A stretch of 39,096 nt of DNA from Escherichia phage T7, in sequence record AY264777.1. One strand, given 5' to 3'. The translations under genes and the position numbers were made by a program. Of the stretch, positions 1-12,505 are shown one piece after another. The notes under the pieces were generated by a model. The model saw only the letters and a list, made by a program, of their open reading frames with translations, was not told the origin of the DNA and made no database searches. Within the stretch, counting starts at the first letter, position 1, and every line of letters starts with the position of its first letter.

Positions 1-137
1 TTCCCCCATAAGGGGTACCTAAAGCCCAGCCAATCACCTAAAGTCAACCTTCGGTTGATCTTGAGGGTTCCCTAAGGGTTGGGGATGACCCTTGGGTTTG
101 TCTTTGGGTGTTACCTTGAGTGTCTCTCTGTGTTCCT
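1..137. repeat. Left direct terminal repeat, partial (window starts about 23 bp inside the 160-bp repeat)
   Basis: 1..120 is identical to 38960..39079 at the other end; the last 17 bp differ from the right copy at 2 positions. Confidence 0.9.
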
Positions 138-149
138 ATCTGTTACAGT

Positions 150-330
150 CTTCTAAAGTATCCTCTTAAAGTCACCTCCTAACGTCCATCCTAAAGCCAA
201 CACCTAAAGCCTACACCTAAAGACCCATCAAGTCAACGCCTATCTTAAAGTTTAAACATAAAGACCAGACCTAAAGACCAGACCTAAAGACACTACATAA
301 AGACCAGACCTAAAGACGCCTTGTTGTTAG
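150..330. repeat. Left-end array of short CCTAAAG-like repeats (T7 end-proximal short repeats)
   Basis: Irregularly spaced cctaaag/cttaaag/cataaag heptamers, e.g. accagacctaaagaccagacctaaagac; non-coding. Confidence 0.6.
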
Positions 331-364
331 CCATAAAGTGATAATCTTTAATCATTGTCTTTAT

Positions 365-387
365 TAATACAACTCACTATAAGGAGA
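365..387 (+). promoter_or_regulatory. T7 RNAP promoter phiOL
   Basis: taatacaactcactataaggaga, 21/23 match to the T7 consensus. Confidence 0.8.
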
Positions 388-438
388 GACAACTTAAAGA
401 GACTTAAAAGATTAATTTAAAATTTATCAAAAAGAGTA

Positions 439-476
439 TTGACTTAAAGTCTAATCTATAGGATACTTACAGCCAT
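439..476 (+). promoter_or_regulatory. E. coli sigma70 early promoter A1
   Basis: -35 ttgact (439-444), 17-bp spacer, -10 gatact (462-467), start near 475; matches the recalled T7 A1 context. Confidence 0.8.
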
Positions 477-565
477 CGAGAGGGACACGGTGAATAGCCA
501 TCCCAATCGACACCGGGGTCAACCGGATAAGTAGACAGCCTGATAAGTCGCACGAAAAACAGGTA

Positions 566-604
566 TTGACAACATGAAGTAACATGCAGTAAAATACAAA
601 TCGC
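566..604 (+). promoter_or_regulatory. E. coli sigma70 early promoter A2
   Basis: -35 ttgaca (566-571), -10 taaaat (590-595), start near 603. Confidence 0.8.
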
Positions 605-690
605 TAGATAACACTAGCAGCGTCAACCGGGCGCACAGTGCCTTCTAGGTGACTTAAGCGCACCACGGCACATAAGGTGAAACAAAACGG

Positions 691-728
691 TTGACAACAT
701 GAAGTAAACACGGTACGATGTACCACAT
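691..728 (+). promoter_or_regulatory. E. coli sigma70 early promoter A3
   Basis: -35 ttgaca (691-696), -10 tacgat (714-719), start near 727. Confidence 0.8.
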
Positions 729-813
729 GAAACGACAGTGAGTCACCACACTGAAAGGTGATGCGATCTAACGAAACCTGACCTAAGACGCTCTTTAACA
801 ATCTGGTAAATAG

Positions 814-870
814 CTCTTGAGTGCATGACTAGCGAATAACTCAAGGGTATCGCAAGGTGCCCTTTATGAT
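814..870 (+). promoter_or_regulatory. Probable RNase III processing stem-loop R0.3
   Basis: Imperfect inverted repeat ctcttgagt...actcaaggg followed by ccctttatgat upstream of gene 0.3. Confidence 0.45.
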
Positions 871-901
871 ATTCACTACTAACTGCACGAGGTAACACAA
901 G

Positions 902-1255
902 ATGGTTATGTCTAACATGACTTACAACAACGTTTTCGACCACGCTTACGAAATGCTGAAAGAAAACATCCGTTATGATGACATCCGTGACACTGATGAC
1001 CTGCACGATGCTATTCACATGGCTGCCGATAATGCAGTTCCGCACTACTACGCTGACATCTTTAGCGTAATGGCAAGTGAGGGCATTGACCTTGAGTTCG
1101 AAGACTCTGGTCTGATGCCTGACACCAAGGACGTAATCCGCATCCTGCAAGCACGTATCTATGAGCAATTAACGATTGACCTCTGGGAAGACGCAGAAGA
1201 CTTGCTCAATGAATACTTGGAGGAAGTCGAGAAGTACGAGGAGAATGAAGAGTAA
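902..1255 (+). CDS. ocr: Gene 0.3 Ocr, DNA-mimic anti-restriction protein (117 aa)
   Basis: ORF track 902..1255; acidic protein matching recalled T7 Ocr apart from 3 substitutions. Confidence 0.92.
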
Positions 1256-1338
1256 TGTCTACTACCAACGTGCAATACGGTCTGACCGCTCAAACTGTAC
1301 TTTTCTATAGCGACATGGTGCGCTGTGGCTTTAACTGA
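1255..1338 (+). pseudogene. 0.4: Gene 0.4 (FtsZ inhibitor) truncated by premature TGA after 27 codons
   Basis: ATG at 1255 overlapping the ocr stop; tga at 1336-1338; reading through would give 51 codons ending at tga 1408-1410, the wild-type length. Confidence 0.7.
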
Positions 1339-1412
1339 TCACTCGCAATGGCACAGCTCAAAGAACTGTACGAAAACAACAAGGCAATAGCTTTAGAATC
1401 TGCTGAGTGATA

Positions 1413-1450
1413 GACTCAAGGTCGCTCCTAGCGAGTGGCCTTTATGATTA
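1413..1450 (+). promoter_or_regulatory. RNase III processing site R0.5
   Basis: Motif ctcaaggtcgctcctagcgagtggcctttatgatt, which recurs in intergenic regions. Confidence 0.55.
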
Positions 1451-1472
1451 TCACTTTACTTATGAGGGAGTA

Positions 1473-1616
1473 ATGTATATGCTTACTATCGGTCTACTCA
1501 CCGCTCTAGGTCTAGCTGTAGGTGCATCTTTTGGGAAGGCTTTAGGTGTAGCTGTAGGTTCTTACTTTACCGCTTGCATCATCATAGGAATCATCAAAGG
1601 GGCACTACGCAAATGA
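1473..1616 (+). CDS. 0.5: Gene 0.5, small hydrophobic protein (47 aa)
   Basis: ATG at 1473 inside ORF-track frame 1407..1616; product MYMLTIGLLTALGLAVG... Confidence 0.7.
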   Translation: MYMLTIGLLTALGLAVGASFGKALGVAVGSYFTACIIIGIIKGALRK

Positions 1617-1774
1617 TGAAGCACTACGTTATGCCAATCCACACGTCCAACGGGGCAACCGTATGTACACCTGATGGGTTCGCAATGAAACAACGAATCG
1701 AACGCCTTAAGCGTGAACTCCGCATTAACCGCAAGATTAACAAGATAGATTCCGGCTATGACAGAACGCACTGA
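1613..1774 (+). CDS. 0.6: Gene 0.6A (53 aa); 0.6B would be a frameshift extension into the 1758..1976 frame
   Basis: Internal ATG at 1613 of ORF 1574..1774; product MMKHYVMPIHTSNGATV... Confidence 0.65.
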   Translation: MMKHYVMPIHTSNGATVCTPDGFAMKQRIERLKRELRINRKINKIDSGYDRTH

Positions 1775-1998
1775 TGGCTTAAAGAAAGGTTATATGCCCA
1801 ATGGCACACTATACGCTGCAAATTGGCGAATAGTGAGAACTTGGCGAGAGAACAACCTCGAACGCCGCAAGGAACAAGAGAGGGCGGCGTGGCATAGACG
1901 AAAGGAAAAGGTTAAAGCCAAGAAACTCGCCGCACTTGAACAGGCACTAGTCAACACACTGAACGCTATCTCATAACGAACATAAAGGACACAATGCA

Positions 1999-2259
1999 AT
2001 GAACATTACCGACATCATGAACGCTATCGACGCAATCAAAGCACTGCCAATCTGTGAACTTGACAAGCGTCAAGGTATGCTTATCGACTTACTGATCGAG
2101 ATGGTCAACAGCGAGACGTGTGATGGCGAGCTAACCGAACTAAATCAGGCGCTTGAGGAACGAATCGCGCTGCACTGGCGTAATGCTGACCGGATGGCTA
2201 TCGCTAATGGTCTTACGCTCAACATTGATAAGCAACTTGACGCAATGTTAATGGGCTGA
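1999..2259 (+). CDS. 0.7: Gene 0.7 remnant, 86 aa, in-frame internal deletion of the protein kinase/host-shutoff protein (wild type 359 aa)
   Basis: ORF 1999..2259 joins the recalled gp0.7 N-terminus ([14 protein letters not shown]...ELNQALE) to its C-terminus ([33 protein letters not shown]). Confidence 0.85.
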
Positions 2260-2264
2260 TAGTC

Positions 2265-2305
2265 TTATCTTACAGGTCATCTGCGAGTGGCCTGAATAGG
2301 TACGA
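2265..2305 (+). promoter_or_regulatory. Probable RNase III processing site R1
   Basis: acaggtcatctgcgagtggcctgaatagg upstream of gene 1, related to the recurring motif. Confidence 0.45.
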
Positions 2306-2329
2306 TTTACTAACTGGAAGAGGCACTAA

Positions 2330-4981
2330 ATGAACACGATTAACATCGCTAAGAACGACTTCTCTGACATCGAACTGGCTGCTATCCCGTTCAACACTCT
2401 GGCTGACCATTACGGTGAGCGTTTAGCTCGCGAACAGTTGGCTCTTGAGCATGAGTCTTACGAGATGGGTGAAGCACGCTTTCGCAAGATGTTTGAGCGT
2501 CAACTTAAAGCTGGTGAGGTTGCGGATAACGCTGCCGCCAAGCCTCTCATCACTACCCTACTCCCTAAGATGATTGCACGCATCAACGACTGGTTTGAGG
2601 AAGTGAAAGCTAAGCGCGGCAAGCGCCCGACAGCTTTCCAGTTCCTGCAAGAAATCAAGCCGGAAGCCGTAGCGTACATCACCATTAAGACCACTCTGGC
2701 TTGCCTAACCAGTGCTGACAATACAACCGTTCAGGCTGCAGCAAGCGCAATCGGTCGGGCCATTGAGGACGAGGCTCGTTTCGGTCGTATCCGTGACCTT
2801 GAAGCTAAGCACTTCAAGAAAAACGTTGAGGAACAACTCAACAAGCGCGTAGGGCACGTCTACAAGAAAGCATTTATGCAAGTTGTCGAGGCTGACATGC
2901 TCTCTAAGGGTCTACTCGGTGGCGAGGCGTGGTCTTCGTGGCATAAGGAAGACTCTATTCATGTAGGAGTACGCTGCATCGAGATGCTCATTGAGTCAAC
3001 CGGAATGGTTAGCTTACATCGCCAAAATGCTGGCGTAGTAGGTCAAGACTCTGAGACTATCGAACTCGCACCTGAATACGCTGAGGCTATCGCAACCCGT
3101 GCAGGTGCGCTGGCTGGCATCTCTCCGATGTTCCAACCTTGCGTAGTTCTTCCTAAGCCGTGGACTGGCATTACTGGTGGTGGCTATTGGGCTAACGGTC
3201 GTCGTCCTCTGGCGCTGGTGCGTACTCACAGTAAGAAAGCACTGATGCGCTACGAAGACGTTTACATGCCTGAGGTGTACAAAGCGATTAACATTGCGCA
3301 AAACACCGCATGGAAAATCAACAAGAAAGTCCTAGCGGTCGCCAACGTAATCACCAAGTGGAAGCATTGTCCGGTCGAGAACATCCCTGCGATTGAGCGT
3401 GAAGAACTCCCGATGAAACCGGAAAACATCGACATGAATCCTGAGGCTCTCATCGCGTGGAAACGTGCTGCCGCTGCTGTGTACCGCAAGGACAAGGCTC
3501 GCAAGTCTCGCCGTATCAGCCTTGAGTTCATGCTTGAGCAAGCCAATAAGTTTGCTAATCATAAGGCCATTTGGTTCCCTTACAACATGGACTGGCGCGG
3601 TCGTGTTTACGCTGTGTCAATGTTCAACCCGCAAGGTAACGATATGACCAAAGGACTGCTTACGCTGGCAAAAGGTAAACCAATCGGTAAGGAAGGTTAC
3701 TACTGGCTGAAAATCCACGGTGCAAACTGTGCGGGTGTCGATAAGGTTCCGTTCCCTGAGCGCATCAAGTTCATTGAGGAAAACCACGAGAACATCATAG
3801 CTTGCGCTAAGTCTCCACTGGAGAACACTTGGTGGGCTGAGCAAGATTCTCCGTTCTGCTTCCTTGCGTTCTGCTTTGAGTACGCTGGGGTACAGCACCA
3901 CGGCCTGAGCTATAACTGCTCCCTTCCGCTGGCGTTTGACGGGTCTTGCTCTGGCATCCAGCACTCCTCCGCGATGCTCCGAGATGAGGTAGGTGGTCGC
4001 GCGGTTAACTTGCTTCCTAGTGAAACCGTTCACGACATCTACGGGATTGTTGCTAAGAAAGTCAACGAGATTCTACAAGCAGATGCAATCAATGGGACCG
4101 ATAACGAAGTAGTTACCGTGACCGATGAGAACACTGGTGAAATCTCTGAGAAAGTCAAGCTGGGCACTAAGGCACTGGCTGGTCAATGGCTGGCTTACAG
4201 TGTTACTCGCAGTGTGACTAAGCGTTCAGTCATGACGCTGGCTTACGGGTCCAAAGAGTTCGGCTTCCGTCAACAAGTGCTGGAAGATACCATTCAGCCA
4301 GCTATTGATTCCGGCAAGGGTCTGATGTTCACTCAGCCGAATCAGGCTGCTGGATACATGGCTAAGCTGATTTGGGAATCTGTGAGCGTGACGGTGGTAG
4401 CTGCGGTTGAAGCAATGAACTGGCTTAAGTCTGCTGCTAAGCTGCTGGCTGCTGAGGTCAAAGATAAGAAGACTGGAGAGATTCTTCGCAAGCGTTGCGC
4501 TGTGCATTGGGTAACTCCTGATGGTTTTCCTGTGTGGCAGGAATACAAGAAGCCTATTCAGACGCGCTTGAACCTGATGTTCCTCGGTCAGTTCCGCTTA
4601 CAGCCTACCATTAACACCAACAAAGATAGCGAGATTGATGCACACAAACAGGAGTCTGGTATCGCTCCTAACTTTGTACACAGCCAAGACGGTAGCCATC
4701 TTCGTAAGACTGTAGTGTGGGCACACGAGAAGTACGGAATCGAATCTTTTGCACTGATTCACGACTCCTTCGGTACCATTCCGGCTGACGCTGCGAACTT
4801 GTTCAAAGCAGTGCGCGAAACTATGGTTGACACATATGAGTCTTGTGATGTACTGGCTGATTTCTACGACCAGTTCGCTGACCAGTTGCACGAGTCTCAA
4901 TTGGACAAAATGCCAGCACTTCCGGCTAAAGGTAACTTGAACCTCCGTGACATCTTAGAGTCGGACTTCGCGTTCGCGTAA
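2330..4981 (+). CDS. 1: Gene 1, T7 RNA polymerase (883 aa)
   Basis: ORF 2330..4981; full-length single-subunit RNAP; specificity-loop region as recalled for wild type. Confidence 0.98.
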   Translation: MNTINIAKNDFSDIELAAIPFNTLADHYGERLAREQLALEHESYEMGEARFRKMFERQLKAGEVADNAAAKPLITTLLPKMIARINDWFEEVKAKRGKRPTAFQFLQEIKPEAVAYITIKTTLACLTSADNTTVQAAASAIGRAIEDEARFGRIRDLEAKHFKKNVEEQLNKRVGHVYKKAFMQVVEADMLSKGLLGGEAWSSWHKEDSIHVGVRCIEMLIESTGMVSLHRQNAGVVGQDSETIELAPEYAEAIATRAGALAGISPMFQPCVVLPKPWTGITGGGYWANGRRPLALVRTHSKKALMRYEDVYMPEVYKAINIAQNTAWKINKKVLAVANVITKWKHCPVENIPAIEREELPMKPENIDMNPEALIAWKRAAAAVYRKDKARKSRRISLEFMLEQANKFANHKAIWFPYNMDWRGRVYAVSMFNPQGNDMTKGLLTLAKGKPIGKEGYYWLKIHGANCAGVDKVPFPERIKFIEENHENIIACAKSPLENTWWAEQDSPFCFLAFCFEYAGVQHHGLSYNCSLPLAFDGSCSGIQHSSAMLRDEVGGRAVNLLPSETVHDIYGIVAKKVNEILQADAINGTDNEVVTVTDENTGEISEKVKLGTKALAGQWLAYSVTRSVTKRSVMTLAYGSKEFGFRQQVLEDTIQPAIDSGKGLMFTQPNQAAGYMAKLIWESVSVTVVAAVEAMNWLKSAAKLLAAEVKDKKTGEILRKRCAVHWVTPDGFPVWQEYKKPIQTRLNLMFLGQFRLQPTINTNKDSEIDAHKQESGIAPNFVHSQDGSHLRKTVVWAHEKYGIESFALIHDSFGTIPADAANLFKAVRETMVDTYESCDVLADFYDQFADQLHESQLDKMPALPAKGNLNLRDILESDFAFA

Positions 4982-10383: not shown

Positions 10384-12424
<2,041 letters not shown>

Positions 12425-12482
12425 CAGGATTCTTGATGACTTTCCAGACGACTACGAAAAGTTTCGCTGGAGAGTCCCATTC

Positions 12483-12505
12483 TAATACGACTCACTAAAG
12501 GAGAC
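12483..12505 (+). promoter_or_regulatory. T7 promoter phi4.3
   Basis: taatacgactcactaaaggagac. Confidence 0.85.

Follow-up and report, generated by a model that had tools for sequence, protein, structure and literature searches.

The window analysed here is the whole stretch of 39,096 nucleotides in record AY264777.1 of Escherichia phage T7. An open reading frame of 86 codons plus a stop follows genes 0.5 and 0.6 and precedes gene 1, which encodes the 883-codon T7 RNA polymerase. This is the T7 gene order, in which the frame occupies the place of gene 0.7. Wild-type gene 0.7 comprises 359 codons (2021..3100 in NC_001604, 2022..3101 in AY264774). The reduction to 86 codons, reported by an earlier sequence-only reading of this DNA, is confirmed by the ORF list and by these two records. 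The coordinates of the remnant, its parts and the neighboring gene 1 are collected in Table 1.

Table 1. Gene 0.7 remnant, its segments and gene 1 in the window
Feature	Position in the window	Strand	Evidence
Gene 0.7 remnant, in-frame fusion with native start, ribosome-binding region and stop	1999..2259	+	ORF list, translation, PHROG 2828
Left-specific segment, equal to T7+ (AY264774) 2022-2169, codon 1 to the first base of codon 50	1999..2146	+	Ungapped BLAST, per-base register
V33I substitution, G>A, mutagen-type class	2095	+	Per-base comparison, translation
Hybrid direct-repeat copy AGGCGCTTGAG at the junction; no other copy in the window	2147..2157	+	Junction alignment, pattern searches, 11-bp BLAST overlap
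AGGC, interval of the left-to-right switch	2147..2150	+	Per-base comparison with both registers
Right-specific segment, equal to T7+ (AY264774) 2993-3101, third base of Ala324 to the stop	2151..2259	+	Ungapped BLAST, per-base register
Gene 1 (T7 RNA polymerase), intact, 9 amino-acid substitutions, shifted by 842 nt relative to T7+	2330..4981	+	ORF list, BLAST

Comparison of the translation with the ancestral protein revealed that the 86 residues correspond to residues 1–53 and 327–359 of the 359 in gp0.7, in agreement with the roughly 53 N-terminal and 33 C-terminal residues claimed before. The C-terminal part contains 33 residues, or 36 when the repeated A-L-E is counted with it, and the N-terminal 53 residues differ from gp0.7 only by V33I. 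At the DNA level, both ends share 99% identity with T7 0.7. Two stretches of the remnant match PHROG 2828, a 'serine-threonine kinase' family (E=2.5e-25). Homology and position both place the remnant in gene 0.7.

Ungapped BLAST against the wild type T7+ (AY264774) aligned window 1–2157 with ancestor 24–2180 and window 2147–22800 with ancestor 2989–23642, the two segments overlapping by 11 bp. The ungapped register reaches the final base, where window 39096 equals ancestor 39938, so the downstream offset is constant, as the earlier reading had noted. One gap of 819 bp (273 codons) is the sole indel relative to T7+ genome-wide. BLAST, the per-base register and the translation agree on this gap, which is the single in-frame deletion internal to 0.7 that had been proposed. 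Apart from it, the window is colinear with T7+ nt 24–39938, and the 23 nt absent at the left end reflect the start point of the record (T7 nt 24). Gene 0.7 is intact in AY264774 and the missing segment lies inside it, which disposes of two objections named in advance, that the gene might be absent from the parental lineage itself or that the segment might not be internal to 0.7.

The deletion sits in a heavily mutated genome. Relative to T7+, we counted 306 evenly spread substitutions, 286 of them (93.5%) G:C>A:T. Every annotated protein of at least 300 residues is altered, with 9 changes in RNA polymerase, 17 in gp16 and 10 in gp15, for example. Previous work has shown that GC>AT changes dominate T7 after nitrosoguanidine or hydroxylamine mutagenesis (PMC6042481). 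The nearest megablast match of the window is 'Enterobacteria phage T7 isolate P82' (AY264778), which is 100% identical over 1400–2800 and 99.9% identical over 25 kb, whereas wild-type T7 records match at 99.2% identity and always in two pieces. The 0.7 junction and its flanks in P82 are identical to those in the window. P82 differs in length (39,085 against 39,096 bp) and by a few extra substitutions, 3 of which lie in the first 4.3 kb, and its record leaves 0.7 unannotated and labels 0.4 as 'similar to gene 0.4' (misc_feature). The companion records K (AY264775), K115 (AY264776) and P82 fit a mutagenised experimental-evolution series. On the basis of these comparisons, the window genome derives from T7+, the Bull-lab wild type, via propagation under a G:C>A:T mutagen, and is a sibling or parent of P82.

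We also notice sequence changes outside gene 0.7. In gene 0.4 (window 1255..1410), a mutagen-type G>A at 1338 creates a premature stop, W28*, which matches the misc_feature label of gene 0.4 in the P82 record. At about 12321–12323, ORF 4.2 (window 12147..12485) is cut short by a stop codon, W59*. This ORF and the 3′ end of gene 4 overlap; gene 4A/4B remains open, with 6 amino-acid changes. A further G>A at window 2286 (T7+ nt 3128) falls between 0.7 and gene 1, just 3′ of E. coli promoter C (annotated at 3113) and in the area of the R1 RNase III site.

The alignment to the T7 reference that the sequence-only reading had called for defined both breakpoints and the microhomology. The left repeat AGGCACTTGAG occupies T7+ 2170–2180 and encodes Q50-A-L-E53, and the right repeat AGGCGCTTGAG occupies T7+ 2989–2999 and encodes K323-A-L-E326. 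Written as AGGC[A]CTTGAG on the left and AGGC[G]CTTGAG on the right, they form an imperfect 11-bp direct repeat that matches at 10 of 11 positions. The junction consists of a single hybrid copy with the right-copy G. The sequence is still left-specific at base 2146 and already right-specific at base 2151 (G), so the switch is confined to AGGC. The strict microhomology at the switch would be these 4 bp, unless the entire right copy was kept. With this ambiguity of 4 nt, the deleted interval spans T7+ 2174–2992 (V01146 2173–2991).

These results bear on several claims of the sequence-only reading. It had placed the junction at 2149–2160, where we find the sequence that it gave, gcgcttgaggaa. The wild-type motifs that it named are correct, with NQALEHQD at residues 49–56 and KALEERIA at 323–330, and recombination between short direct repeats is supported by breakpoints lying on GC[A/G]CTTGAG-type repeats. 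The short direct repeat itself stands, and its description is refined to an 11-mer with one mismatch, of which the right-copy base is kept. The repeat is present twice in the parent and once at the junction with no filler, the parent AY264774 is intact and elsewhere colinear with the window, as is typical of the short-repeat deletion class. No restriction-site, linker or marker scar was found at the junction, where either wild-type flank accounts for every base.

Identity of 10/11 is rare in gene 0.7, where it is reached by 19 of about 572,000 position pairs, so the location of both endpoints on such a pair is not due to chance. A better substrate is present in the gene, the exact 10-bp repeat ACTTGACGCA at 2423/3077. 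The pair that was used gives the largest deletion among the internal pairs of 0.7. Repeat quality alone is insufficient to explain which pair was used, so selection or chance must be added.

The T7 kinase protein (T7K) is divided into a kinase domain (PK, 1–242) and a shutoff domain (SO, 243–359), the latter being toxic and binding DNA and RNA (PMC13645617). In T7K, G76 belongs to the ATP site and its mutants are catalytically dead, and a DPV motif (213–215) takes the place of DFG (PMC13645617). Both G76 and D213-P-V215 are present in the T7+ ancestor, and both fall within the deleted residues 54–326, in line with the earlier claim that the ATP-binding and catalytic regions are gone. Since G76 and DPV213–215 within PK 1–242 are deleted, the remnant has no kinase core and is a derivative of gene 0.7, not a kinase. 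The earlier claim of kinase loss was correct but incomplete, because 84 of the 117 SO residues (about 72%) and 26 of its 30 Lys/Arg are deleted too. Only 327–359 are left, and the remnant does not retain the C-terminal SO domain (243–359, basic helix). Among the known activities, none has been mapped to gp0.7 residues 1–53 or 327–359 (PMC13645617). The remnant would be a null allele, and both activities of gp0.7, phosphorylation and shutoff, should be lost.

A Pfam-A scan of wild-type gp0.7 and the remnant gave no match at E<=0.01, and a relaxed scan returned only a spurious Peptidase_S49_N (E=0.66). A PDB sequence search likewise gave no match. Because these searches gave nothing, the domain limits were taken from PMC13645617 and from PHROG families, of which the kinase families cover wild-type residues 6–281. 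We notice that a precomputed Pfam tag, PF27024.1, is attached to all gp0.7 remnants (P0001–P0010), N-terminal-only and C-terminal-only alike. This family is probably newer than the local Pfam-A copy, since the local scan of gp0.7 was empty. The protein search that yielded P0001–P0010 did not list full-length gp0.7, presumably owing to a word-index limit.

Deletion between short direct repeats is a classical route to T7 early-region deletions, and the class has been known since Studier et al. 1979. PMC5630979 cites Studier et al. 1979 and Kong & Masker 1994 for direct-repeat deletions. Studier's H1 removes nt 1256–2735 between 12-bp repeats AGGAAGTCGAGG; it arose spontaneously in rich medium at 37 °C and was attributed to polymerase slippage (PMC7261183). 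Like the deletion in the window, H1 is an early-region deletion between short repeats, produces an in-frame fusion and removes the gp0.7 kinase domain. In contrast, H1 spans 1.48 kb, begins in 0.3 and removes 0.4–0.6, whereas the window allele is confined to 0.7 with 0.3–0.6 present. H1 also keeps the C-terminal 121 residues of gp0.7, including most of the shutoff domain, while the window allele keeps the last 33. The deletion described here is therefore of the Studier class, and by its endpoints in V01146 it is an allele distinct from H1.

Isolate K (AY264775) carries a different deletion of 821 bp between exact CCGCAAG repeats at 1752 and 2573, with a junction at about 1729–1735 of AY264775, which fuses 0.6A in frame to gp0.7 residues ~187–359. 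K resembles the window in being mutagenised, in belonging to the same GenBank series, in its ~820-bp short-repeat deletion and in the loss of the kinase ATP site. Unlike the window allele, however, it keeps the DPV motif and the entire shutoff domain. In K115 (AY264776), a descendant of K, 0.5–0.7 are lost altogether. The T7 mutants in the MZ375xxx records were considered as further internal 0.7 deletions and rejected, as MZ375237 has a full-length kinase CDS of 1080 bp and its deletion lies upstream.

In the phage collection, the junction is found in one piece only in P82 and in Yersinia phage YpP-R (JQ965701, 1545..1805; AFK13397), a phage of Yersinia pestis. The YpP-R CDS, named 'protein kinase', is 261 bp long, with exactly 86 codons in the same register. 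It uses the same repeat pair and shares 92% amino-acid and 89% DNA identity with the window across the junction. On the other hand, its junction is AGGCACTTGAG, with the left-copy A, and its flanks diverge from T7 within 8 nt on the left and 11 nt on the right of the repeat. Cedecea phage Yanou, the nearest full-length relative of YpP-R, has A in the left copy and G in the right, 819 bp apart, like T7; N30 has A in the left copy and T in the right. Since the flanks and the junction base differ and the repeat arrangement of Yanou fits, the YpP-R deletion is independent of that in T7 and was differently resolved.

A related fusion is found in phiA1122, which belongs to the same species as YpP-R. 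Its gp0.3 (NC_004777, 906..1328), of 140 residues, is an in-frame fusion of Ocr with the last 33 residues of gp0.7. The junction gagtatCTTGAGGAAcgaatc is located at about 1219–1227; the right-hand site is CTTGAGGAA, covering 0.7 codons L325–E327, and gene 0.3 contributes the left partner, the L-E-E codons at its 3′ end. The right-hand site and the in-frame 33-residue tail are the same as in the window, but 0.4–0.6 and nearly all of 0.7 are absent. The fusion could be a second deletion in a YpP-R-like genome. In its record, phiA1122 gp0.3 is annotated as 'ocr-like anti-restriction'. YpsP-G (JQ965703) has no 0.7 CDS. We notice that its RNA polymerase CDS (1347..4058) has 903 codons, 20 above that of T7, and overlaps the preceding 0.6-like ORF. 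This may reflect an early-region deletion up to gene 1, or an annotation artefact.

A 30-mer junction pattern had no match in IMG/VR or GTDB genomes. A 17-mer pattern matched 16 IMG/VR and at least 120 metagenome loci, none of them T7-like by BLAST, and these were set aside as chance matches.

We propose that a spontaneous deletion joined the two 11-bp imperfect direct repeats inside gene 0.7. The misaligned repeats may have been resolved by replication slippage (copy-choice) or by annealing after a break, and the sequence fits either. Masker reportedly described both a recombination-independent route and a route stimulated by double-strand breaks for direct-repeat deletion. Under a slippage model, retention of the right copy (G) would fit leftward synthesis of the nascent strand, and retention of the left copy (A) in YpP-R would fit rightward synthesis. 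The event left one hybrid repeat copy and an 86-residue protein from which the kinase core is missing, together with most of the shutoff domain.

The allele may have spread because gp0.7 is dispensable and reportedly costly in rich-medium serial passage, and bottlenecks may have helped. That 0.7 is dispensable in the laboratory, as the sequence-only reading had claimed, is stated in PMC2680503, which describes gp0.7 as deleterious in rich medium and 0.7 substitutions and deletions as common in serial transfer. PMC6042481 makes the same point for early-region deletions. According to the summary in PMC5850294, Cunningham et al. 1997 worked with nitrosoguanidine and observed 9 deletions and 11 nonsense codons. 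As a whole, a mutagenised T7+ lineage in which a short-repeat deletion inactivated 0.7, and in which the cost of gp0.7 spread the null allele, is very probably the correct explanation.

It is less likely, though worth taking seriously, that the deletion was neutral and was fixed by bottleneck drift in the mutagenised lineage instead of by selection against gp0.7. Strong drift or hitch-hiking did operate here, because the lineage fixed nonsense codons in the nonessential gene 0.4 and in ORF 4.2, together with many missense changes. Drift does not, however, account well for the independent loss of the kinase region in lineage K, nor for the recurrence of this loss among Yersinia phages and in further passage experiments with T7, and the literature reports a growth benefit of the loss in rich medium (PMC2680503, PMC6042481). 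We thus favor spread of the null allele through the cost of gp0.7.

The deletions that end inside 0.7 are five in number, namely H1, those of lineages K and P (the latter seen in the window and P82) and those of YpP-R and phiA1122; all of them produce in-frame fusions, which raises the question of whether the product is under selection. We counted 11-mer direct repeats in the early coding region (AY264774 925..3101). At a threshold of 10/11 identity there are 23 repeat families, and in 18 of them the copies share codon phase (P=1.3e-5 in a binomial test with an expectation of 1/3). Near-perfect 11-mer pairs in gene 0.7 number 19, as against 4.9 +/- 3.0 after shuffling, an excess of about four-fold. 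Similar peptide motifs and codon usage presumably create these phase-sharing repeats. Because 18 of 23 families share codon phase, the in-frame outcome is mutationally expected and selection is not needed to explain it. We considered the in-frame fusion as proof of selection and rejected it as unnecessary given this bias.

This count weighs against the idea that the 86-residue remnant is a functional mini-protein, or that gene 1 expression depends in cis on translation as far as the native stop of 0.7. In its favor, YpP-R keeps the 86-codon architecture intact, phiA1122 has the same 33-residue tail in frame with Ocr, and the H1 and K deletions are in frame too. K115, YpsP-G and UV-evolved T7 nevertheless have no separate 0.7 gene, and no known activity resides in residues 1–53 or 327–359; we regard a function of the remnant as improbable. 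The T7 P lineage, YpP-R and phiA1122 each used the ALE(E)-coding site at 0.7 codons 323–327 independently. One might speculate that this repeat is a deletion hotspot of Teseptimavirus, or that its product is selected, with the 33-residue tail or the mini-protein functioning as protein or in cis, through ribosomes that travel up to gene 1. We hold such a role to be just as doubtful. The preferred reading remains a null allele whose reading frame was kept by the phase of the repeats.

With respect to the G at the junction, the switch might instead have occurred in the 6-bp CTTGAG, giving a AGGCACTTGAG junction as in YpP-R with a later A>G change, or the left copy might have changed A>G first, giving a perfect 11-bp repeat. 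The lineage is heavily mutated, with its 306 substitutions, a perfect repeat would be a better deletion substrate, and a change at this third base of an Ala codon is synonymous. But A>G is the wrong class for the mutagen, seen at 4 of the 10,843 A sites (about 3.7e-4 per site), and the G is already supplied by the right copy. Since A>G is so rare in the lineage, the junction G was inherited from the right copy and did not arise by later mutation, and we consider either order of events very improbable. An assembly or sequencing artefact, or an engineered deletion, is scarcely credible: the window by itself would also fit a collapse between the repeats, with nothing specific in favor of one, but an imperfect 11-bp repeat is far too short for assembly collapse, the separately deposited P82 genome has the identical junction, and the junction contains no foreign or linker sequence.

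The deletion is an ordinary event of an already known kind, and the sister genome P82 with its junction has been public since its deposit in 2003. It is mildly notable only in that T7, YpP-R and phiA1122 used one repeat site independently of each other, and its consequences are slight beyond correct annotation. For annotation, the ORF in the window is a null remnant and should not be called 'protein kinase'; the YpP-R CDS is likewise misnamed, as its kinase core is absent. The use of one repeat pair in two phage species offers an example of mutational predictability, with no new principle involved. In 2026, T7K was found to disarm many bacterial defences (PMC13645617). Phages with the remnant allele, including the plague-diagnostic relatives YpP-R and phiA1122, are predicted to be sensitive to such defences, which may be relevant to those who use these phage stocks.
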